Assembly: GCA_947493995.1 (NCBI GenBank) | Contig: CANLTJ010000003.1 | Location: forward strand, 29,298 to 93,297 | Source of the DNA: an uncultured Arachnia sp. | GTDB taxonomy: Bacteria > Actinomycetota > Actinomycetes > Propionibacteriales > Propionibacteriaceae | DNA length: 64,000 nucleotides | Reading direction: 5' to 3' | Shown here: piece after piece, positions 1-10,851 of the stretch | Layout: each line of letters opens with the position of its first letter | How positions within the stretch are numbered: position 1 is the first letter of the stretch | Program-made: the position numbers and the translations under genes | The notes under the pieces: model-generated | Databases searched by the model: none | Seen by the model: the letters and a program-made list of their open reading frames with translations, nothing else | Told to the model about the DNA's origin: nothing

Positions 1-951
1 CAGCATGCACAGGAGGCCTTCTACTCCGCGGGAATGCAGTCGATCGGAGTGGGATTGCTCGTCGCCGCCGTCGGAGCAATCGCCGTGACACTGGTGACGA
101 CGCGACGGCTCAGCCGGTGGCTCAGTGCTCTCAGCCGAGGGGCGGAACGTGTATCCGCCGGTCACTACGAACAACCCGTCTCCCTGAGCCACGCCAGTCC
201 TGAGCTGGAGCGTGTGGCCGACGCCTTCAACGGCATGGCGGCCCAGATAGAGACTACGGAGTCCCGACGGCGAAAGCTCCTCACCGATGTCGCACATGAA
301 CTCCGCACCCCCATCGCCGCAATCGACGTGACCCTGGAGGGACTGGAGGACGGGGTGATCGCGCCCGGGGACCAGGCCTATGCCACGCTGCGTGCGCAGT
401 CCGCCCGATTGGCGAGGCTGGCCGCCGACATCCGTGACGTCAGTGCTGCGGAGGAGGGACGTCAGCACATCAGCCTGCGAAGGACGACGGCGGGGGAGCT
501 CGTCGAAGTCTGCATCCGTGAGTGGGCCGGACGATTCTCCGAAGCGGGCGTCGCCCTGCGATGCAGTGTGGACGACGACGCCGAGGTGGATGTGGACCGG
601 GCCCGCATCGAACAGGTGCTGGACAACGTGTTGGCCAACGCTCTGCGTCACACGCCGCGGGGTGGACGCGTGGAAGTTCGAGCCGTACCCGTGGCCGGAC
701 GGGTAGCCATCGTCGTCACCGACGACGGCGAGGGCATCAGCGCCGAGGCGCTGCCCCACGTCATGGAGCGCTTCTATCGAGCAGATCCTGCCCGCGGGAG
801 AGCCGACGGTTCCGGAACCGGCGTGGGTCTGGCGATCTCCCGAGCGATGGCTCGCGCCCACGGAGGGGACCTGACCGCCCACAGTGACGGACCGGGACGC
901 GGTGCCACTTTCACGTTGTCTCTGCCATCTTCATCAAATCTTCACCGATGA
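1..951 (+). CDS. Sensor histidine kinase (HAMP-HisKA-HATPase, BaeS/CusS-like), 5'-truncated by window edge
   Basis: Frame is open from base 1. It has the H-box DVAHELRTP, N-box QVLDNVLANALRH, G1 DDGEGI and G2 GTGVGLAI, with a TM segment before the HAMP domain. Confidence 0.92.
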   Translation, partial: QHAQEAFYSAGMQSIGVGLLVAAVGAIAVTLVTTRRLSRWLSALSRGAERVSAGHYEQPVSLSHASPELERVADAFNGMAAQIETTESRRRKLLTDVAHELRTPIAAIDVTLEGLEDGVIAPGDQAYATLRAQSARLARLAADIRDVSAAEEGRQHISLRRTTAGELVEVCIREWAGRFSEAGVALRCSVDDDAEVDVDRARIEQVLDNVLANALRHTPRGGRVEVRAVPVAGRVAIVVTDDGEGISAEALPHVMERFYRADPARGRADGSGTGVGLAISRAMARAHGGDLTAHSDGPGRGATFTLSLPSSSNLHR

Positions 952-1054
952 AGCGTTGAACCGGAGTGCGTCGTCGGCATGCTGGAAGCCAGTCCAGGCT
1001 TTATCGCCGCGACAAGTCCACATCGTTGTTCCTCAAGCCTCAAGGAAAGTGACC

Positions 1055-1696
1055 ATGACCCGCATACGAACCGCCGTTCTCTCCGCTGCCCTGCTGTTCG
1101 GCCTGGGAGCTGTCGGAGGCTGCAGCACCGTCACCGGTTCCGGCGCAGAGCCGGCCGTGAGCACGACGTCACCAGCGGATGCCGAGGCGCCAACCGGAGA
1201 TGTCGAGGCGCCAACCGGAGATGCCGAGGCGCTGTTGTCCGCTCACGGGCTCTCCGGCATGACCGCACGGGAGGTCGTGGAGACCCTCGACCAGGACCCG
1301 GCCGCTCGCCCACTTGAAATCATGGGATCCGTCACCTACGACGAGGTCGTCCTCAGTGATGAAACCGCCGAGGTCTCCCTTCCGCTCGACGGCGACGAGT
1401 TCTACATCTCCGCGGCGCCGTACGAGACCAGAACCCATGACTGCTACTTCCACAGCCTCGGGACCTGCCAGGGCGAACTGACCAACACCGACGTCCACGT
1501 GAGCGTTGTCTCCGACGACGGTGAGACCCTCATCGATGAGGACATGACCACCTATGCCAACGGCTTTGTCGGTTTCTGGGTACCGAAGGACATCTCGGGC
1601 ACGGTCACGATCACCAAGGACGGCCTGACCGCTGAAGTGCCGTTCTCCTCCGACGAGGAGGGAGCAACGTGTCTAACCACTGTGGAACTCACCTGA
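1055..1696 (+). CDS. cueP: CueP-family copper-binding lipoprotein
   Basis: ATG at 1055 after AAGGAAAG, with lipobox VGGC. Motifs FYISAAPYETRTHDCYFHSLGTCQGEL, NGFVGFWVP and C-terminal TCLTT match the CueP His/Cys pattern. Confidence 0.8.
   Translation: MTRIRTAVLSAALLFGLGAVGGCSTVTGSGAEPAVSTTSPADAEAPTGDVEAPTGDAEALLSAHGLSGMTAREVVETLDQDPAARPLEIMGSVTYDEVVLSDETAEVSLPLDGDEFYISAAPYETRTHDCYFHSLGTCQGELTNTDVHVSVVSDDGETLIDEDMTTYANGFVGFWVPKDISGTVTITKDGLTAEVPFSSDEEGATCLTTVELT
1178..1232 (+). repeat. In-frame 21-nt tandem repeat (about 2.6 copies) in the CueP linker
   Basis: GATGCCGAGGCGCCAACCGGA / GATGTCGAGGCGCCAACCGGA / GATGCCGAGGCGC, encoding DAEAPTG-DVEAPTG-DAEA. Confidence 0.9.
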
Positions 1697-1801: not shown

Positions 1802-2548
1802 GTGAAGCCACTTCCGCTGCGCGTCTGTCTCCACAATGACTACGAGGTAGTCGTCCGTGGCCTACAGTCCATGCTCCAGCCCTACGAAGATCGCGTGCGC
1901 GTCGTGGAGCTCGACAGCCGAATGCCCGTCTCCAGAGACGTCGAGATCACCCTCTACGACACCTTCGGCCGGGCTCAGGCGGACGGAGATGAGATCGAGG
2001 ACATCCTGGAGAACAGTCACGCTGGCAAAGTCGTGATCTACACCTGGAACATGCACCCCGTCCTGATTGACCAAGCCCTGGCCAAGGGTTGCTACGGATA
2101 CATCGACAAGGGGATCTCCGGTGAGGACCTCGTGCACGCGCTCGAACGCATCGATGCGGGTGACGTGGTGGTATCTCCCGTCCGCTCCAGCAACGTCAAC
2201 GCTAACCTCGACGGCCACGTCGCCCAAGAGCGGCAATTGCCTCCAGACTCCCACCCCCATGTTCTCGGCGCGAACCCGGATGACACAAAGTCCGCAGCGT
2301 TCGGAGGCGGCCAATGGCCCGGGAGGCACGCCAAGCTGAGTGCCCGTGAGGCCGAGGTCCTGGTCCTCATCACGCAGGGTTACACCAACAACGACATTGC
2401 CGCGCGCAGCTACCTCAGCATCAACTCCGTCAAGTCCTACATCCGCTCCGCCTACAGGAAGATCGGTGTGGAGCGTCGCTCGCAGGCCGTGCGATGGGGA
2501 ATGGAGAACGGAATGCTGCCGGACACGAGCCGCACGATCGTCGCCTGA
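1802..2548 (+). CDS. NarL/LuxR-family response regulator
   Basis: Receiver-like N-terminus (LYDTF, YTW, YIDK) and a C-terminal LuxR HTH (LSAREAEVL...TNNDIA...SINSVKSYIRSAYRKIG). Confidence 0.85.
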   Translation: MKPLPLRVCLHNDYEVVVRGLQSMLQPYEDRVRVVELDSRMPVSRDVEITLYDTFGRAQADGDEIEDILENSHAGKVVIYTWNMHPVLIDQALAKGCYGYIDKGISGEDLVHALERIDAGDVVVSPVRSSNVNANLDGHVAQERQLPPDSHPHVLGANPDDTKSAAFGGGQWPGRHAKLSAREAEVLVLITQGYTNNDIAARSYLSINSVKSYIRSAYRKIGVERRSQAVRWGMENGMLPDTSRTIVA

Positions 2549-2549
2549 C

Positions 2550-3290
2550 CTACTCCTCGACGCCGCCCCCTCCGCCTTCGCCGACTGTGTCCAGCTCGCG
2601 CAGGTAGTGCGCGAAGCCGGTTGGAATCTTGCTGTGTCTGCGTGAGGATGTGACTACTCGCGTGGTATCCGTGGCCAACCATCGGCCCTCCAGTTCTCGC
2701 ACACGCTTGGCGAGAGCCACATCCTCGTGCACGCTCTTGGCACCGAAACCCCCCGCCGCCTCCCAGTACGAGAGCCGGATCCCCAGATTCGCGCCGTGCA
2801 CGTGTGGGTGTCCCTCGCCCAGTATGTGTTCCGCGAACCACAGACGGTGCGCCGACAGCTGGTGGGGCAGGGCAGGACCCGGTTCGACCGTCCCGAGGAC
2901 GAGATCAAGGCCGGAATCGGCCAGGCTGCACTGCCGGTGCAGCCACGTATTCGGCACCACCGTGTCTGCATCCGTGTTGGCCACCCAGATGCGTTCCGCG
3001 CCGTGGTGCGTGAGGTGGCATCGCGCCGCCCGTACCCCGGCGTCCCGGGTGGCACCGACATTCCCGAACGGGGCATCCACCACGAGCAAGGGCATCTCGT
3101 CGCAGAATCTCTGAGCAACCGCGGCGGACCCGTCAACGCATCTGTCGAGGGATGCCACAACCACCACGTCGAGGGTGATGCGTTGCACTGCTTCCCGAAC
3201 TGATTCCAGACAGGCGCTCAGCAGACTCTCCTCGTTGTGGACCGGAATGACGACGGCCAGTGCGGTGATCGGGAGCTGGCTCCCGGTCAT
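2550..3290 (-). CDS. Glycosyltransferase family 2
   Basis: VVIPVHNEE, DxD motif NTDADTVVP, GANLGIR and HEDV. Start overlaps the upstream stop (ATGA). Confidence 0.85.
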   Translation of the reverse strand: MTGSQLPITALAVVIPVHNEESLLSACLESVREAVQRITLDVVVVASLDRCVDGSAAVAQRFCDEMPLLVVDAPFGNVGATRDAGVRAARCHLTHHGAERIWVANTDADTVVPNTWLHRQCSLADSGLDLVLGTVEPGPALPHQLSAHRLWFAEHILGEGHPHVHGANLGIRLSYWEAAGGFGAKSVHEDVALAKRVRELEGRWLATDTTRVVTSSRRHSKIPTGFAHYLRELDTVGEGGGGGVEE

Positions 3291-4612
3291 CGCGGCTGGT
3301 CTGCGAGTCGAAACACGTCGAGAACGAAGTCCTGATCATCGATGGTGGTGTGCGGGATGCCCAGTTGCCCTCGCAGAATGCGATGCACCTCTGGGCCATC
3401 CAGCGGCCAGCCCCGCACGTCATGGCGCCAGTGACACGCCACCACAGTGTTTGAGGCGGAGTTCGCGATGAGTTCAGCCAGCTCCCGCATCCGCCGGGGA
3501 CTGAGGAAATAGCCGAGTTCGGAGACGACGATGAGATCGGCATCCAGTCGCCGCAGATCGTCCGGAATGCGTTGGTGGAGCAACTCGACGTGGCTGAGGT
3601 GAGCGACAGTGCGCTGCGCCCTGCTCAGAGCCGCGGCGCTCGAATCGATCGCCAGCACATGGCGTGCCCGTTCCGCCAGATCAGCGGCCAGGGCTCCTAC
3701 CGAACAGCCCAGTTCCACGGCGCGGTCATACGTCGGCTCGGGAAGGACCGCCAGGGTGCATGCGCGTTTGCGGCGCTCGTAGAAGCTGGTGTGGACCGAC
3801 CAGGGATCAGCGTGGCTGGAATGCAGTTCCTCGAAGGGGTTCCTCTCGGAGGGTGAACCGTCGAAGAACACCTCGAATGCCCGCTCGAAGTGGGACAGCA
3901 TGGCGGGTGTAACGACGGCGTCGTCCCCCGGCTGGTCGCTGAGGGGCAGGATCTGCGAACGGTGCTTCTGCATAGCCGTCCGTTTCGCCCGGAAGGCGTC
4001 GGAGGAAAGGGCAAGATTCGGGCCGGGTGGCATCGCGGCGTCGGGCGAACCCCAGTGCCACCACCAGATGGGCGCCTCGAGGAGCTGGGCATCGGTGCGC
4101 CATGCGGCACTGGCAGCGGCCCGTGCGGCTGCCTCGTGATCGGGATGGCCGTCACCACGCCACGTTGAGACCAGTAGCGTCTCTGCGCCGTCGAGGGCGA
4201 TGACGTCCACCAGAAGTTCGACGAGGGAATCGATGGACGCGCCCAGATCCCCGTCGGCGTAACCCGGCATGTGCAGCGTGGCGTTCGGTGCCAGGGCCTG
4301 CACGGCATCCTCCACCTCCGGGCGGCGCAGCGCCACGAGATCCGTACGGGAATGAGTGGGTGAATGGGGGTGGGAGCCTTCACCGTCGGTCGCCACCACC
4401 ACCGTGACGGGGATGCCCCGCGCGTGGGCCATCGCGATGAGGCCGCCGGCCATCAGGGTCTCGTCGTCCGGATGGGCAGCCACCACCACAAGGTGCTGGA
4501 CCGCCGAGAGGTCCAGTTCGGGACGCTCGCCACGTGCCAGAGCGCTGGCCCATCTCGTTTCTGGGACCGTGTCATCAGTGTGGTGGAATGACGGCGGTGG
4601 TGTCACGCCCAT
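3287..4612 (-). CDS. PIG-L/LmbE-family deacetylase fused to a NodS-like SAM-dependent methyltransferase
   Basis: AAHPDDETL and GDGHPDHEAA zinc-deacetylase motifs, plus C-terminal DPW...YERRKR and ELGCSVG SAM motif. An alternative start GTG at 4606 overlaps the upstream stop. Confidence 0.85.
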   Translation of the reverse strand: MGVTPPPSFHHTDDTVPETRWASALARGERPELDLSAVQHLVVVAAHPDDETLMAGGLIAMAHARGIPVTVVVATDGEGSHPHSPTHSRTDLVALRRPEVEDAVQALAPNATLHMPGYADGDLGASIDSLVELLVDVIALDGAETLLVSTWRGDGHPDHEAAARAAASAAWRTDAQLLEAPIWWWHWGSPDAAMPPGPNLALSSDAFRAKRTAMQKHRSQILPLSDQPGDDAVVTPAMLSHFERAFEVFFDGSPSERNPFEELHSSHADPWSVHTSFYERRKRACTLAVLPEPTYDRAVELGCSVGALAADLAERARHVLAIDSSAAALSRAQRTVAHLSHVELLHQRIPDDLRRLDADLIVVSELGYFLSPRRMRELAELIANSASNTVVACHWRHDVRGWPLDGPEVHRILRGQLGIPHTTIDDQDFVLDVFRLADQPR

Positions 4613-5649
4613 GTGGACTCCATGCCGGTGAGGAGGGCATCACCCACCGTCGCCGCATCCCGTTCAGCCTTGTGCTGGCGCAGGTAGACCTCCAGGTCGC
4701 TGACGCGGCGGGCGTGTTCCTCGTCGAGGGTGAGCGGGCCCGGACCCAGCCCGTGTGCCGCACAGCGCAGCACCGCCTCGCACGCATCGTGGACGAGGTG
4801 GCGAACCCGCAGAGCCGAGGCCCAAACACCCGAACCCTGCAACCCGCCGGAATCGACGGCGTGGGCGGCTTGTGCGAGGACGGCCGCTGCTGCATGCAGC
4901 CTGGTGTCGGCCTCACCCAGCAGCATCCGGGAAATCTGGTCGGGATCCCGACTGGTTGCTGATGACAGCATCGAGCGGGCGATTCCTGCCGCTCCTCCCC
5001 ACCAGATCGCAGCCACCCCGATGCCACCCCATGCGAAGCCGGGCCTGTTCAGATACCAGCCATCCTCACCCACGGGTGTGGCGGGGACTTCATCGAAGTC
5101 CACCGGGACCGACACCACCTGAGCCAGCCCACGCGCCGCCCACGGCGCCTCCGCAGCGCTCACGCCCGGATGGTGGAGATCGACGGCGAACAGTCGCCGC
5201 GTGCTCTGCGATGTCCATGCCGTGATGAGTGCCCTGTCGAGATGTGAGGCCAGGGAACACCAGGGTTTGCGGCCATTGAGGAGGAACCCATCGTCACGCG
5301 TGGTGGCATCGAGGCGGGTGCCCGGACCCTCTGCCGCGAACACCCCCCAGGTGGCTTCGTCGGTGCTGTCGCGCAGGCCGCCTCCGGGCGCTTCAGCCAG
5401 GATCGCCAGTGCATCCACATGGGGTTCCAACGCTCGGGCGACGGTGAGGTCAATGGCCGCCAGGTCCGCCAGCGACTGCCAGAGCTGCAGGGTACGCCCC
5501 GTACCGGGGCGATCGAGCAGTTCTCCGACGGCGGGAGCAATGCGCAGAGCCGCTATCGGATCACCTGCCGCTTCGCGGGCTGCAGCGCATACACCGTCCC
5601 ACCCGGCGGGCCGTGAAACGTCCGCCGCGCCCGTCTCAAAACGCACCAT
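4603..5649 (-). CDS. Acyl-CoA dehydrogenase-like flavoprotein
   Basis: LNGRKPWCS middle-domain motif, VSVPVDFD, and a C-terminal helical domain ending HGLGPGPL...DLEVYLRQH. Confidence 0.75.
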   Translation of the reverse strand: MVRFETGAADVSRPAGWDGVCAAAREAAGDPIAALRIAPAVGELLDRPGTGRTLQLWQSLADLAAIDLTVARALEPHVDALAILAEAPGGGLRDSTDEATWGVFAAEGPGTRLDATTRDDGFLLNGRKPWCSLASHLDRALITAWTSQSTRRLFAVDLHHPGVSAAEAPWAARGLAQVVSVPVDFDEVPATPVGEDGWYLNRPGFAWGGIGVAAIWWGGAAGIARSMLSSATSRDPDQISRMLLGEADTRLHAAAAVLAQAAHAVDSGGLQGSGVWASALRVRHLVHDACEAVLRCAAHGLGPGPLTLDEEHARRVSDLEVYLRQHKAERDAATVGDALLTGMESTWA

Positions 5650-5814
5650 GGAGGCCTACAGTAGGGCCGGGGATAGGGCAATGCAGCTCACCCTGCCGGG
5701 GGAAGTGAACGCCCTCGATGACCGGGGTGGGACCCGAGATGACGGGCAGGGATCGTCGGTGCCAAACTGGAGCTGTCCGCGAACGACCTCTTCTCATTCA
5801 CAAAGGATATCTGC

Positions 5815-8010
5815 ATGACCTCCACAGGCCGCGTCACTCTGCCGATCGAGCAGGGCATGGACGAGCAGCTCCCCGGCATCCTGTCCCGTCTGGGGGCAGA
5901 TGCAGTGCGCAACTCGGATGGCACATGGCTGCCGGAGATCACACCGCAGCTGGGCGTGAAGGTCTACGAAACGTACTTCCCGGCACGTGGCGACCAGGAA
6001 TTCGCCCTGGCACACCTCGACGCCAGGCCGCGCGTGTATCTGATGTCGGAGCGCGCCGCGGCACCAGCGGAGGGTCCCCTCGAGATCGAAATCATGCGTG
6101 GCTACCTCCCTCTGCAGGTGACGCCCGACATGACGGAAGTCACCCGCTGGTGGGAAGTGATTGACCGCACCACGGGTGACGTGGTGGACGTGTCGCAGTG
6201 GAGCGTGGCGGGGGAGGACAGCGAAACGATCGTCACCCTGACGAACCCGGTGCCGTTCCACGTCTACACCGTCAACTTCCTGGCGTGGCAGGCCTGGGAC
6301 TCGACGCAGATGTACAACTACACCACCAACAACTGGCAGAACGACCCGACGCGGGTCCGCGAGATCGGCTATGACGCCTGGCATCCCGAGGCGTGGGAGT
6401 TCATGCAGCAGTCCCTGCGCGACTGGTGCAGCGAGCGTCCGGAAGTGGATGTGGTGCGCTTCACCACGTTCTTCTACCACTTCACGCTGGTGTTCAATGA
6501 CCTCTCCAAGGAGAAGTACGTCGACTGGTTCGGCTACAGCGCGTCCGTCTCACCCCGCGCCATGGATGCCTTCGAGGCCGAGTACGGCTACGCCCTGCGC
6601 GCCGAGGATTTCGTCGACGAGGGCTACTACAACTCACCTTTCCGCACTCCATCGAAGACCTACCTGGACTGGATCGACTTCCAGTCGCGCGCCGTCTGCG
6701 AGCGAGCCAAGGTGCTCGTAGATATCGTCCACGAGCACGGCAAGGAAGCCATGATGTTCTTGGGCGACACCTGGATCGGCACCGAGCCGTACGGTGAGCA
6801 CTTCTCCAGCATCGGCATGGACGCAGTCGTGGGCTCCGTGGGATCCGGCGCCACGTGCCGCATGATCTCCGACATCACGGGCGCCACTTACACCGAGGGA
6901 CGTTTTCTGCCCTACTTCTTCCCCGACGTGTTCACCGAGGGGGGCGACCCGTTGGGTGAGGCCAACACGTCCTGGCTGAACGCACGCCGCGCCATCGCAC
7001 GCCAACCCCTGGATCGCATCGGCTACGGCGGGTACCTCAGTCTGGCGGTGAAGTTCCCGGACTTCGTGGCTCGGGTCGAGGAGATCACTGATGAGTTCCG
7101 AGCCATCCATGAGCTCGGAGGCGGGCAACGTCCCGAGAACGCACCCATTCGTGTGGCGATCGTGAACGCGTGGGGGAGCCTGCGGACATGGCAGACGCAC
7201 ATGGTGGCCCACGCGCTCTGGTACAAGCAGATCTACTCCTACCTCGGTGTGATCGAGGCGCTCAGCGGCCTGCCGTTCGAGGTGGAGTGGTTGAGTTTCG
7301 ACGACGTGCGTGCAGGTGCGCTGGAGGGCGTCGACGTCGTGTGCAACGTCGGCGCCGCCAACACGGCGTTCTCGGGCGGGGCCGAGTGGCTGGATGCAGA
7401 TCTGGTGACTGCAATGCGCGCCCACGTGGCCCGTGGCGGCGGGTTCATCGGCATCGGGGAGCCGTCCGCCGTGGCAGCCGGAGGGGCATACTTCCAACTC
7501 TCGGACGTGCTGGGTGTGGACAAGGAGATGGGCTGGTCCCAGTCCACCAATCGATACCCGGTTGCGCACGGCGAGCACTTCATCACAGCGGACCTGCGCC
7601 AGCGCGCCGATGTCGGTGAGGGGGCCGGGGACATCTTCGCCGTGGGCGGGGTGCAGGTGCTGCAGCTCGACGAGGAGTCGGTGGACATCGCAGCGAACAC
7701 CGCAGGCAGGGGGCGAGCCGTCTACTTCGCCGGCCTGCCCTACACCACCGACAATGCTCGCCTGTTGCACCGGGCCATCTACTGGGCAGCTGGCAGGGAG
7801 GACGAGTTCGCCTCGCACTGGACCAGCGCGAACCCCGACGTGGAGGTGGCCGTGTTCCCGGAATCGGGTAAGGCGCTGCTCATGAACAATTCGGGAGCCC
7901 CTGCCAGCACAGTGGTCGCCGGCCGTGCCACCGGTTTCCTCGGCGATGGCGAGGTGGTCTCGCACGAAGTGCAGCTCGGCGCCATGGAATCGCGCTGGCT
8001 GGACATCTGA
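5815..8010 (+). CDS. gnpA: 1,3-beta-galactosyl-N-acetylhexosamine phosphorylase (GH112, GNB/LNB phosphorylase)
   Basis: N-terminus TGRVTLP...GADAVRNSDGT, VVRFTTFFYHFTL, YVDWFGYSASVSP, EGRFLPYFFPD and RIGYGGYLSLA; 731 aa. Confidence 0.93.
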   Translation: MTSTGRVTLPIEQGMDEQLPGILSRLGADAVRNSDGTWLPEITPQLGVKVYETYFPARGDQEFALAHLDARPRVYLMSERAAAPAEGPLEIEIMRGYLPLQVTPDMTEVTRWWEVIDRTTGDVVDVSQWSVAGEDSETIVTLTNPVPFHVYTVNFLAWQAWDSTQMYNYTTNNWQNDPTRVREIGYDAWHPEAWEFMQQSLRDWCSERPEVDVVRFTTFFYHFTLVFNDLSKEKYVDWFGYSASVSPRAMDAFEAEYGYALRAEDFVDEGYYNSPFRTPSKTYLDWIDFQSRAVCERAKVLVDIVHEHGKEAMMFLGDTWIGTEPYGEHFSSIGMDAVVGSVGSGATCRMISDITGATYTEGRFLPYFFPDVFTEGGDPLGEANTSWLNARRAIARQPLDRIGYGGYLSLAVKFPDFVARVEEITDEFRAIHELGGGQRPENAPIRVAIVNAWGSLRTWQTHMVAHALWYKQIYSYLGVIEALSGLPFEVEWLSFDDVRAGALEGVDVVCNVGAANTAFSGGAEWLDADLVTAMRAHVARGGGFIGIGEPSAVAAGGAYFQLSDVLGVDKEMGWSQSTNRYPVAHGEHFITADLRQRADVGEGAGDIFAVGGVQVLQLDEESVDIAANTAGRGRAVYFAGLPYTTDNARLLHRAIYWAAGREDEFASHWTSANPDVEVAVFPESGKALLMNNSGAPASTVVAGRATGFLGDGEVVSHEVQLGAMESRWLDI

Positions 8011-8542: not shown

Positions 8543-8643
8543 CCGTGCTCCTTGCCGAAACGCCTGCCACTTCATCCTAGGTCGCTCAGGAAGTGGCGCC
8601 CAATTCCCGTTTTGCTAGGTTGGCAACGAACAGGAGGTGGGCC

Positions 8644-9519
8644 GTGGCAGACATCGATGACTTCGATCTGGACGCGACGATGGAGATGGCCTGGCAGGAT
8701 TTCGCGAATCGTCTGGCCGAGGTGCTCTCCGTCATGGACGACACCAGCGATCTGTGTATCTCCGTGGCCGCCAACACCGTGCCCGGCACGACGCCGCCGG
8801 TGATCACCTTCTCCTACCAGGAGCCAGCCAGTGTCGCCGCAACTCTGCGGGGCGCCGACCACGAAGTTCTGACACGGCTCGGTTGGCAGGATGACGGCGA
8901 CGGAGCCCATCATGTGCGCTGGGACCAGGAGGACACCTCCGAACTGGCATCCCTGGTGTCCCGGACCATGCGGGAGGGCCTGGGAGCCATACATCCCGTC
9001 TTCCTGGAACCCGACCAGCTTGCAGACATCCTCAAGCCCGGCGTCCCAGTGGAGCGAGGCGTGGGCGTCCTACCCGGTCCCTTCGGCATCGTTATGCCTA
9101 CCAGCAGGGATGATCTGGACGCCGTGGTGGGTGCGGAACTTGAAAGAGCGTTCGGTCACCCACCCATGCGGGACAGTCAGGGAGACGTCGCCATTCGTAT
9201 CGGCTCCACCATGCTCTTCCTGCGCTCCACTCCCGATTTCGAGGAACTGGTGCTCTTCGCCGTGCTGGTCCATGACGTGGAGGGCCGCTCACGCGCCTGC
9301 GAGGTGCTGAACGATCTGAACCGGGAGTCTCGCTACTGCCGCTTCTCCCTGCACCTGGACCGAGTCTTCGTCCAAGTTTCGGTCCCCGCGAGGCCGTTCG
9401 TTCCCATTCACCTCAGGAGGGCTCTGGCCACCATCTCTCAGACCGCCGACGGCATCGACGACGAGCTGGCGGCACGTCTGCGCGGCCGCACGACATTTGA
9501 CCAAGGTGGGACGCCGTGA
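8644..9519 (+). CDS. T3SS-chaperone/YbjN-like peptide-binding protein (TY-Chap type, two domains)
   Basis: GTG at 8644 after AGGAGG. N-domain AWQDF...LA.VL..M; C-domain RDSQGDVAIRIGSTMLF...LNDLNRESRYCRFSL...ADGIDDEL, typical of the YbjN/CesT fold. Confidence 0.6.
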   Translation: MADIDDFDLDATMEMAWQDFANRLAEVLSVMDDTSDLCISVAANTVPGTTPPVITFSYQEPASVAATLRGADHEVLTRLGWQDDGDGAHHVRWDQEDTSELASLVSRTMREGLGAIHPVFLEPDQLADILKPGVPVERGVGVLPGPFGIVMPTSRDDLDAVVGAELERAFGHPPMRDSQGDVAIRIGSTMLFLRSTPDFEELVLFAVLVHDVEGRSRACEVLNDLNRESRYCRFSLHLDRVFVQVSVPARPFVPIHLRRALATISQTADGIDDELAARLRGRTTFDQGGTP

Positions 9520-9914
9520 CGGGCATTCCGGATTCCAACGGCTATTTCGCTGCGCTGGACGCGTCCGAATGCCGCAAACTGCTGCGCGCCGGTGAGATCG
9601 GACGGGTGGCCTGGCAGAGCGGGACGGACATCAACATCCTGCCCGTGAACTACAAGGTAGTCGACGACCACGTCGTGTTCCACACCTCCGAGACCGGAGC
9701 GCTCGCCTCACTGCTGACGCCGACACGGGTGGGTTTCCAGGTGGACGAGATCGATCTTGAGGCAACCGTGGGATGGACACTACTTGTTCGCGGAACCAGC
9801 GGGCCCGCGGTGGGCCTAGACTCCTCGTCATGGGTGCCGGACGGGCGCCGTGTGGGCGTGGCCATCGCCGTGGAGTGGCTCGGTGGCCGTGTTGTCTCGG
9901 GAACATCGAGCTGA
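9516..9914 (+). CDS. Pyridoxamine 5'-phosphate oxidase-like FMN-binding protein
   Basis: ECRKLL...IGRVAW...ILPVNY...FHT...FQVDE...GWTLLVRG split-barrel pattern; GTGA overlap with the upstream gene. Confidence 0.75.
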   Translation: MTGIPDSNGYFAALDASECRKLLRAGEIGRVAWQSGTDINILPVNYKVVDDHVVFHTSETGALASLLTPTRVGFQVDEIDLEATVGWTLLVRGTSGPAVGLDSSSWVPDGRRVGVAIAVEWLGGRVVSGTSS

Positions 9915-9930
9915 AGGATCCAGGGAGGTC

Positions 9931-10851
9931 ATGATGGAGCAGTCCGAGGAGCAGAACAACAACGGGGTCGAGCAGGACATCGCTCGTGATGTGCCGGCGG
10001 GGAGCCCCCTCATCGTCGTCGGCGTCGATGGCAGCGACGACGGCCTGCGTGCCGTGCGTTTCGGTGCCAATACGGCACGGACCTTCGGCGGGGAACTGAT
10101 GCTCGTGCACGCCGTCGACGATGCGATGCTGGCCGGGGCGTGGGGCGTGGTCTACGACCCGGAGGTTCTCCAGAACGCGGGTGTGTCCGCGAATGCCCAG
10201 GCCAAGGAACTCGCTCTTGAACTCGGCCTGCCGGAGGAGCGCATCCGCACCGAGGTAGTCCTCGGCTCACCGGGGGGCGTCCTCGGACGTCTCAGCGAGG
10301 TCGCGGACCTGATCGTGCTCGGGCGTCGGTCCGTGTCCGGTCTGGAGCGGATGTTCGTGGGGTCCACGAGCGTCTCGGTGGTCTCCAACTCCTCCTGCCC
10401 GGTCCTCGTCATCTCGGCGGCCGCTCACCCCATCGACGTGGGCGGCAAGAAGCTGATCGGCGTCGGTATGAACACCAGCCCCGGCAATCACGCAACCCTG
10501 GAGGAGGCGTTCAAACAGGCACAACGCTTCCAGTCGTCACTGGAAATCGTGCATGCCCTCCAGCCACCGATCGGGATCTTCGCGAAGAAGCTGAGCCCTG
10601 ACGATCTGGAGGAGCAGCTGCGTTTCATCCGCGGTGGTCTCAAGGCGCTGGCCAAGTCCATCGCAAAGCGCTATCCCGACGTGGTCTATAAGGTGATCGT
10701 GGTGGCCGACAGCCCCATCAACGAACTGGTGGGCCGCTCCAGCAGCTACGACGCCCTGGTGCTGGGGATCAGCAACGGAGGCTTCGGTCTCGGCGGCTTG
10801 GTGCGAGGACTGATGGCCCACGCTGAATGTCCTCTGCTGATCACGAACTGA
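9931..10851 (+). CDS. Tandem universal stress protein
   Basis: IVVGVDGS...A and DLIVLGRR...GSTS.SVV...CPVLVI, followed by a second Usp domain; ATG after GGGAGG. Confidence 0.9.
   Translation: MMEQSEEQNNNGVEQDIARDVPAGSPLIVVGVDGSDDGLRAVRFGANTARTFGGELMLVHAVDDAMLAGAWGVVYDPEVLQNAGVSANAQAKELALELGLPEERIRTEVVLGSPGGVLGRLSEVADLIVLGRRSVSGLERMFVGSTSVSVVSNSSCPVLVISAAAHPIDVGGKKLIGVGMNTSPGNHATLEEAFKQAQRFQSSLEIVHALQPPIGIFAKKLSPDDLEEQLRFIRGGLKALAKSIAKRYPDVVYKVIVVADSPINELVGRSSSYDALVLGISNGGFGLGGLVRGLMAHAECPLLITN

Follow-up and report, generated by a model that had tools for sequence, protein, structure and literature searches.

The window analysed here is a stretch of 64,000 nucleotides from an uncultured Arachnia sp. 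(GenBank assembly GCA_947493995.1, contig CANLTJ010000003.1, positions 29,298 to 93,297). Its positions 2550-5649 hold a three-gene operon that encodes an acyl-CoA dehydrogenase (ACAD)-fold flavoenzyme, a PIG-L deacetylase fused to a NodS-like methyltransferase (MT), and a family 2 glycosyltransferase (GT2). The operon is a member of an orphan family in which no member has a known product, and it is a variant of glycosyltransferase-plus-deacetylase synthesis of amino-sugar conjugates, with an unexplained MT/flavoenzyme half. Tentatively, and at somewhat less than an even chance, we read it as an intact copy of a widespread cytoplasmic amino-sugar-conjugate cassette, built from two sub-modules whose enzymes would act in the order MT, flavoenzyme, GT2 and PIG-L. 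The relatives of the operon form a natural mutant series at one chromosomal site, which is new here, and this series provides much of the argument that follows.

Operon organization

In the list of open reading frames (ORFs) of the window, the interval is filled by three minus-strand frames, 5649..4603, 4612..3287 and 3290..2550. Their features are as follows.

4603..5649, minus strand: gene 1, ACAD-fold flavoprotein of 348 aa (Pfam just under cut-off, plus AlphaFold2 (AF2) model)
3287..4612, minus strand: gene 2, PIG-L deacetylase::NodS-like methyltransferase fusion of 441 aa (Pfam)
2550..3290, minus strand: gene 3, GT2 glycosyltransferase of 246 aa, small and soluble, GT-A fold, inverting family (Pfam and AF2 model)
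3848..4612, minus strand: PIG-L/LmbE-type zinc de-N-acetylase domain of gene 2, residues 1-255, Pfam core 42-169 (PIG-L, PF02585, 81.2 bits against a cut-off of 28.2)
4460..4474, minus strand: PIG-L catalytic motif H47-P-D49-D50-E51, codons CAT CCG GAC GAC GAG (sequence)
3311..3823, minus strand: NodS-like class I S-adenosylmethionine-dependent methyltransferase domain of gene 2, residues 264-434 (NodS, PF05401, 41.2 bits against 24)
2964..2972, minus strand: DxD metal/nucleotide-sugar motif D107-A108-D109 of the GT2 (T106, D107, A108 and D109 invariant in 20 orthologues)
4603..4612, minus strand: overlap of the gene 1 stop and the gene 2 start, 10 nt, ATGGGCGTGA (sequence)
3287..3290, minus strand: overlap of the gene 2 stop and the gene 3 start, ATGA, 4 nt (sequence)

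Both overlaps are a classic signature of putative translational coupling, and the 10-nt overlap between genes 1 and 2 is identical in two relatives (L003 and L005). A membrane segment or signal peptide is predicted in none of the three proteins. The operon is read as cytoplasmic and self-contained.

The PIG-L half of gene 2 keeps all 37 of the 37 residues that are invariant among complete cassettes, and it has the motifs A46-H-P-D-D-E51 (AHPDDE) and H156-P-D-H159 (HxDH). Following published MshB/BshB work, we take the His and the second Asp of the first motif to be zinc ligands and the first Asp (D49) to be the general base. The MT half keeps 32 of 34 invariants and has the N-terminal DPW...YE..KR segment of NodS. 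Its NodS Pfam match covers residues 267-373 of gene 2 and only positions 15-122 of the 201 in the profile, and it misses the cut-off of the NodS equivalog NF041650 (44.1 bits against 300). Its matches in the Protein Data Bank (PDB) are 4ISC (E 2e-29), a Pseudomonas syringae methyltransferase deposited as a structural-genomics entry without function, and NodS itself (3OFJ, E 6e-7).

Gene 3 scores 47.0 bits against PF00535 (Glycos_transf_2, cut-off 23.3) and keeps 27 of 27 family-invariant residues, with the DxD, HGANL, ED and TSxR motifs all invariant. Its AF2 model, with a predicted local distance difference test (pLDDT) value of 93.3, is a plain GT-A fold that matches chondroitin polymerase, WrtF, TarS/TarP and SpsA at template-modelling (TM) scores of 0.60-0.68; these are generic neighbours, and the fold search assigned neither subfamily nor donor nor acceptor.

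Co-occurrence of the four domains

The four-domain grouping is far beyond chance. Among the 38 genome loci that were seeded with the PIG-L::MT fusion and contain a full-length relative, all four domains are adjacent in 33; these loci come from Actinomycetota, Xanthomonas/Luteimonas, Herbaspirillum and an Acidobacteria metagenome-assembled genome (MAG). A second set, of metagenome loci, was seeded with the ACAD-like protein, a choice unbiased toward the other three domains; of the 28 loci with enough flank, 25 have the four domains adjacent on one strand. Within the family Propionibacteriaceae, parts of the cassette occur in about 7 of 81 genomes and never apart from each other. Orthologues of the ACAD-like protein and of the GT2 share 33-69% identity across Actinomycetota, Pseudomonadota and Acidobacteriota, and natural fusions of two further kinds, ACAD::PIG-L::MT and GT2::ACAD, were found. 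PIG-L and MT are separate genes in the Xanthomonas cassettes, whereas the actinobacterial form, including the window operon, carries them in one protein. The same domains, tight packing and families recur in the orphan cassette annotated 'acyl-CoA dehydrogenase / GlcNAc-PI de-N-acetylase (PIG-L) / methyltransferase / glycosyltransferase', and 4ISC is the structure of its methyltransferase from P. syringae.

The cassette has no conserved fifth gene: the top neighbour clusters (SDR, Dps/ferritin and response regulator) reach at most 9 of 78 loci. Where a theme is present in the neighbourhood, it is stress and stationary phase, with Dps/ferritin, Ku/LigD, a cold-shock protein and a BCCT transporter. 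These data bear on two claims of an earlier note on this DNA, which had been made from the sequence alone. Its description of three overlapping genes supplying four activities is upheld by the ORFs, by the Pfam and fold identities and by the 10- and 4-nt overlaps, and its expectation that the domains co-occur in other genomes agrees with the genome, metagenome and family counts and with the fusions.

Two individual loci are recorded here in their own right. A metagenomic ACAD-like relative (P0183) is called as a single 962-aa product that joins a Sulfotransfer_5 fragment, a GT2 and an ACAD-like domain; either read-through has produced an artefact, or some versions of the cassette may add sulfate. 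In the complete genome of Isoptericola jiangsuensis DSM 21863 (L040:9374-10107), the GT2 is matched in two frames, at residues 1-144 and 138-232, and the rest of the cassette is complete with an intact PIG-L motif, which indicates a frameshift or sequencing error.

Gene loss in relatives

Six relatives carry the cassette at the chromosomal site of the window, between a lacto-N-biose phosphorylase (LNBP) gene and a response regulator gene, and among these same-site copies the GT2 is intact only in the window. Together with two copies at other sites, the series reads as follows.

Window: GT2, PIG-L and ACAD-like all intact
L003: GT2 a pseudogene, with the N-terminal ~125 aa including the DxD deleted and an in-frame stop; PIG-L and ACAD-like intact
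L004 and L005: GT2 gone; PIG-L intact; ACAD-like intact
L065 (Tessaracoccus antarcticus): GT2 gone; PIG-L with D49A, a 27-residue deletion and D158E; ACAD-like intact
L152/L153: GT2 gone; PIG-L with D49C; ACAD-like deleted in frame
L064 (other site): no GT2 at the cassette; PIG-L with D49G
L070, also G054 (another genus, other site): no GT2 at the cassette; PIG-L with DADR in place of HxDH and 64 gapped columns

The genomes of L004, L005, L064, L065 and L070 gave no GT2 orthologue at any other locus. Counted over all fetched loci, the catalytic motifs of PIG-L are intact in each of the 72 with a GT2 and damaged in four of the seven without a working one (Fisher p = 2e-5, not corrected for phylogeny). 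Since the codons or motifs differ, the four separate damage events, D49G (GGG), D49A (GCC), D49C (TGT) and HxDH to DADR with deletions, are independent. In the ACAD tree, L005 with its intact PIG-L is sister to L065 with a dead one, which places the damage after the loss of the GT2. The change of the catalytic Asp in L064 is one of only two among the 37 PIG-L invariants; judging from these copies, the catalytic Asp is the first and recurrent casualty of the domain.

The remaining domains are retained. In the GT2-less relatives, 30-33 of the 34 MT invariants survive, as do 36-38 of the 39 of the ACAD-like protein where it is present, and domain-specific loss is significant in both L065 and G054 (p = 0.007 each). 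Between the GT2-less sisters L005 and L065, separated by a synonymous divergence (dS) of ~0.8, the ratio of nonsynonymous to synonymous divergence (dN/dS) is 0.15 for the MT and 0.20 for the ACAD-like protein. In L152, the start codon and first ~10 codons of the deleted ACAD gene are kept and now lead the dead-PIG-L::MT gene. Free decay of the whole dead PIG-L domain was considered and rejected, given its dN/dS of ~0.23 and damage centred on catalytic residues plus two deletions. As a conjecture, the pattern suggests that these lineages retain the PIG-L fold for the sake of the attached MT and silence an activity that has lost its partner.

The same losses could also be taken to mean that the operon is a decaying remnant in the lineage of the window, with the window copy the least eroded and the MT conserved for an unrelated housekeeping methylation. 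Of the seven sampled relatives, six have lost the GT2, four have a dead PIG-L and one has a deleted ACAD; the cassette is also rare in the family, as counted above, and 21 other genomes of the window's genus yielded no copy. However, the window copy keeps 38/39, 37/37, 32/34 and 27/27 invariants across its four parts together with its coupled junctions, and dN/dS stays at 0.14-0.32 across all parts, so that we regard decay as improbable.

The ACAD-fold flavoenzyme

Gene 1 falls just short of both relevant Pfam cut-offs (Acyl-CoA_dh_M, 30.4 against 33.3; Acyl-CoA_dh_1, 21.6 against 22.4). Its AlphaFold model (pLDDT 91.9) nevertheless adopts the three-domain ACAD fold, at TM 0.73-0.80 to solved structures of the superfamily. 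The fold search ranked the sugar N-oxygenases KijD3 and DnmZ, as well as DszC, beside true ACADs, and the top PDB profile matches were 'ACAD type 2', TdsC/DszC, MsuC and DnmZ, with the true ACAD 2DVL scoring similarly. A single-sequence search of 1.84 billion representatives returned only 1509 relatives at E<=1e-3, so that the bulk of true ACADs was not reached; by this measure, the gene 1 family is small, divergent and isolated. Gene 1 keeps 38 of the 39 residues invariant in that family, a family with an invariant set of polar residues peculiar to it (E75, H77, D79, K128, R202, R324 and Q325). It retains the flavin-contacting G-x-K-x-W-C-S segment, and in a profile alignment the 'GYH' segment of TdsC places its histidine opposite the invariant His77. 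The residue roles assigned here are taken from published MCAD/DszC work.

The closest comparison for gene 1 is with the ACAD-fold two-component flavin monooxygenases, namely DszC/TdsC, MsuC, SfnB and the nitrososynthases KijD3, DnmZ and ORF36. Gene 1 has the fold in common with them (TM 0.73-0.78) and, judged by motif position only, may likewise do without the canonical ACAD catalytic Glu. It differs from them in being only 15-20% identical, in its own invariant set, in a shorter N-terminal domain (348 aa in all against ~390-420) and in an operon without a reductase gene. The window genome (G000) does encode one flavin reductase (Flavin_Reduct), away from the operon at C8:17262-17693, and an Arthrobacter has a flavin reductase gene 3 kb from its cassette. 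The window genome has no canonical ACAD, and an acyl-CoA oxidase is its sole other ACAD-superfamily protein. Taken together, gene 1 is probably a flavin-dependent oxygenase that uses reduced flavin, rather than an acyl-CoA dehydrogenase.

Proposed pathway

The loss of the transferase would leave the deacetylase without a substrate, and GT2 and PIG-L can thus be seen as one functional pair; this pairing in turn supports an N-acetylated sugar donor and a deacetylation that follows transfer. In the proposed sugar module, the GT2 would move an N-acetylhexosamine onto an acceptor, most likely N-acetylglucosamine (GlcNAc) from UDP-GlcNAc. GT2 enzymes invert and yield a beta linkage, and the linkage here would accordingly be beta. 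The PIG-L domain would then strip the N-acetyl group to leave a free cationic amine. In the acceptor module, the NodS-like MT and the ACAD-fold flavoenzyme would make or tailor the acceptor, presumably a small molecule; the flavoenzyme would probably act as an oxygenase with reduced flavin supplied in trans, and it may create the group to be glycosylated. Because the MT stays under purifying selection without the pair, as does the flavoenzyme in every lineage except one, the MT is not solely dependent on an amine freed by PIG-L. The acceptor module would therefore be expected to give a useful product even without the sugar module, and the step order MT, flavoenzyme, GT2 and PIG-L appears to be the best fit to the gene-loss series. 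On this two-module reading, relatives without a GT2 would be predicted to build up a compound that falls short of the product of the intact operon by one hexosamine (161.07 Da).

A number of observations weigh against this reading. The loss series comprises one clade and one other genus, with several members being MAGs, and PIG-L in the 'dead' lineages has a dN/dS (~0.23) only slightly above the 0.15-0.20 of its neighbours. Partial cassettes of other kinds exist, without MT (L079), without PIG-L (L146 and L032) or with ACAD alone (L130). Retention of the MT could reflect a moonlighting role, or a glucosamine (GlcN) glycoside from another source, such as MshA/MshB, may supply it. The PIG-L::MT and ACAD::PIG-L::MT fusions and the NodS homology are what a deacetylate-then-N-methylate order would lead one to expect. 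As for the oxygenase assignment, all E-values of the fold search lie near 1e-13, and oxygenases and dehydrogenases are not separated by it. Canonical ACADs carry the catalytic Glu in a Y-E-G loop (Glu-Gly-Thr) between the last two helices; the loop of gene 1 at that place reads V-Y-L-R-Q-H, with R324 and Q325 invariant, and is assigned by motif position only, as an hhalign comparison with the acyl-CoA oxidase of the same genome reached a probability of 2% and the catalytic-Glu position is not mapped by it.

The earlier note had suggested that the product may be an N-methylated amino-sugar glycoside or an envelope or stress metabolite, with NodB/NodS of Nod-factor synthesis as a precedent. Under a Nod-like linear order, the GT2 would form a GlcNAc glycoside, PIG-L would deacetylate it, the NodS-like MT would N-methylate the amine, and the ACAD-fold enzyme would oxidise the amine in the manner of nitrososynthases. 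The likeness is real in that NodC/NodB/NodS also encode a GT2, a de-N-acetylase and a NodS-family MT together; the above-threshold NodS match with its DPW...YE..KR segment, the fusion of PIG-L to MT here and of ACAD::PIG-L::MT elsewhere, and the amino-sugar N-oxygenases KijD3 and DnmZ among the top fold and profile matches of gene 1 all fit this order. However, NodB has a CE4 fold whereas the window deacetylase has a PIG-L fold, and NodC has a processive Q(Q/R)xRW motif and a membrane domain, whereas the soluble 246-aa GT2 lacks both: the motif does not appear in its alignment, and the NodC equivalog is missed by far (17.9 bits against 550). The window operon also has an extra flavoenzyme. More importantly, on a Nod-like order the MT should have no further use after the loss of GT2 and PIG-L, yet MT and ACAD-like protein remain under purifying selection where the genome has no GT2 and PIG-L is dead (MT dN/dS ~0.15, 32-33 of 34 MT invariants kept), and the MT persists even where the ACAD is deleted (L152). 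A GlcN glycoside made by MshA/MshB could rescue the order in actinobacteria, but those products are alpha-linked. The gene-loss pattern argues against the Nod-like order and for an MT that needs no deacetylated sugar; an N-methylated amino sugar is therefore not the best-supported product, and we hold this alternative to be unlikely, though the least unlikely of the competing accounts.

Comparison with other amino-sugar systems

The earlier note had also drawn an analogy with mycothiol and bacillithiol synthesis. In both, MshA/MshB and BshA/BshB apply a glycosyltransferase and then a PIG-L zinc deacetylase to a GlcNAc glycoside, and this logic, along with conserved HPDD and HxDH motifs, is the same as that proposed here. 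The analogy holds for the logic and fails for identity: MshA and BshA are retaining GT4 enzymes, whereas the window transferase is an inverting GT2, and the operon is without a Cys ligase.

It can be asked more narrowly whether the cassette is a branch of mycothiol metabolism, that is, an alternative MshA/MshB or Mca. The nearest named families of the PIG-L domain are indeed BshB, MshB and Mca, but it remains far below every equivalog cut-off in NCBIfam (BshB2 63 against 195, BshB1 42 against 182, MshB 33.3 against 224 and Mca 21.6 against 277). The genome encodes a genuine MshB (236.7 bits) at another locus, as well as an Mca-like gene, and the transferase is a GT2 and not a GT4. Carriers of the cassette also include Xanthomonas, Herbaspirillum and Acidobacteria, and proteobacteria are not known to make mycothiol. 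Such a role is very improbable and was rejected.

A further alternative is that the cassette decorates an envelope polymer or lipid (teichoic acid, lipoglycan, lipopolysaccharide or glycolipid) with a deacetylated, methylated amino sugar. Among the fold neighbours of the GT2 are TarS/TarP, which transfer GlcNAc to wall teichoic acid, as well as ArnC and DPMS-type enzymes, and lipid-linked amino sugars are known targets of deacetylation. Nevertheless, neither membrane segments nor signal peptides are present in the three proteins, the neighbourhood of the cassette has no conserved flippase, GT-C transferase or transporter, and the cassette occurs in Gram-positive and Gram-negative lineages whose envelopes are unrelated. 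An envelope role thus seems improbable, and the small-molecule conjugate remains the preferred reading. A role in anti-phage defence was also considered and rejected, because PADLOC gave only a generic methyltransferase match (mad2, 30 bits) and none for gene 1 or gene 3.

Full-text searches returned no pathway or product assigned to the four-domain cassette. The sole mention they gave is a gene-map legend, in which the four cassette genes of Acinetobacter are listed beside the BLUF photoreceptor gene blsA (PMC9020721, Fig. 3 legend). Within the scope of these searches, the earlier note's statement that no assigned product is known for such clusters stands, and no known pathway was found to include the cassette. 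P. aeruginosa DnpA, which turned up in the same literature searches, is unrelated to the cassette.

Genomic context

The window genome, an assembly of 58 contigs that totals 2.9 Mb, falls within the Propionibacteriaceae and close to Tessaracoccus/Arachnia. The operon is flanked by the following features.

5650..5814, no strand: divergent intergenic region of 165 bp between the operon and the LNBP gene; presumed operon promoter (sequence)
5815..8010, plus strand: GH112 lacto-N-biose/galacto-N-biose phosphorylase (LNBP); upstream, divergent, 165-bp spacer
1802..2548, plus strand: NarL/DevR(DosR)-type orphan response regulator ('LuxR' gene); downstream, convergent, stop codons one base apart; best PDB match DevR

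The presumed promoter region contains a TACTGT (TANNNT) hexamer 8 nt ahead of the gene 1 ATG. Inspection of 5650..5814 revealed no clear Shine-Dalgarno sequence for gene 1, and a consensus sigma-70 scan of the region gave no match.

A functional link between LNBP and the cassette was not supported, as their synteny is limited to this clade and outlasts erosion of the cassette; LNBP is 83-84% identical across the clade, against 53-69% for the adjacent cassette genes, and persists after the cassette erodes. In this clade and in G054, the response regulator lies close to the cassette, which is not the case in Brevibacterium, Rothia and Arthrobacter; the regulator may control the cassette. A few kilobases away lie a tandem universal-stress protein and a Pyridox_ox_2-type protein, the latter assigned by synteny with T. 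antarcticus (9516-9914 and 9850-10851, both plus strand). The set of regulator, universal-stress protein and Pyridox_ox_2-type protein is reminiscent of a DosR-like dormancy regulon.

Other genes of the window and its genome are noted for completeness. A 308-aa protein with TY-Chap3 and TY-Chap1 domains (YbjN/T3SS-chaperone-like; 8593-9519, plus strand) occupies the same place in T. antarcticus and L152. At the left edge, a HAMP-HisKA histidine kinase ORF (34-951, plus strand) overlaps by ~68 nt the start of a gene for a CueP-type periplasmic copper-binding protein (884-1696, plus strand); the two probably form a copper-responsive unit whose response regulator lies off the left edge of the window. 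On another contig of the genome (G000 C2:255823-257522), an MshA-like GT4 gene (309 bits against the MshA cut-off of 462) is followed after 20 bp by a PIG-L gene (112 bits with the MshB model), and this second pair is separate from the MshB gene (C2:335003-335866) and the Mca-like gene (C4:43491-44324).

Conclusions

The product itself can be described only with considerable doubt, and the following account is unlikely to be right in all its parts. It would be a member of an undescribed class of cationic beta-glucosaminides, in which a common metabolite is methylated, oxygenated by a new subfamily of ACAD-fold oxygenases so as to provide the site of attachment, capped with GlcNAc and finally deacetylated. 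The uncapped intermediate would itself be functional, so that the MT and flavoenzyme would persist after the sugar module is lost, and the repeated replacement of the catalytic Asp would reflect selection against an orphan deacetylase that had become harmful, rather than neutral decay. 

Acinetobacter carries the cassette, as do plant-associated Pseudomonas and Xanthomonas and many actinobacteria of soil and skin. One catalytic residue was replaced three times independently once the partner enzyme had gone, and this gives a neat, compact illustration of how fused enzymes erode. A four-enzyme operon that occurs across several phyla without a known product represents a well-defined target for pathway discovery, and the relatives of the window offer a ready-made comparative series for it.

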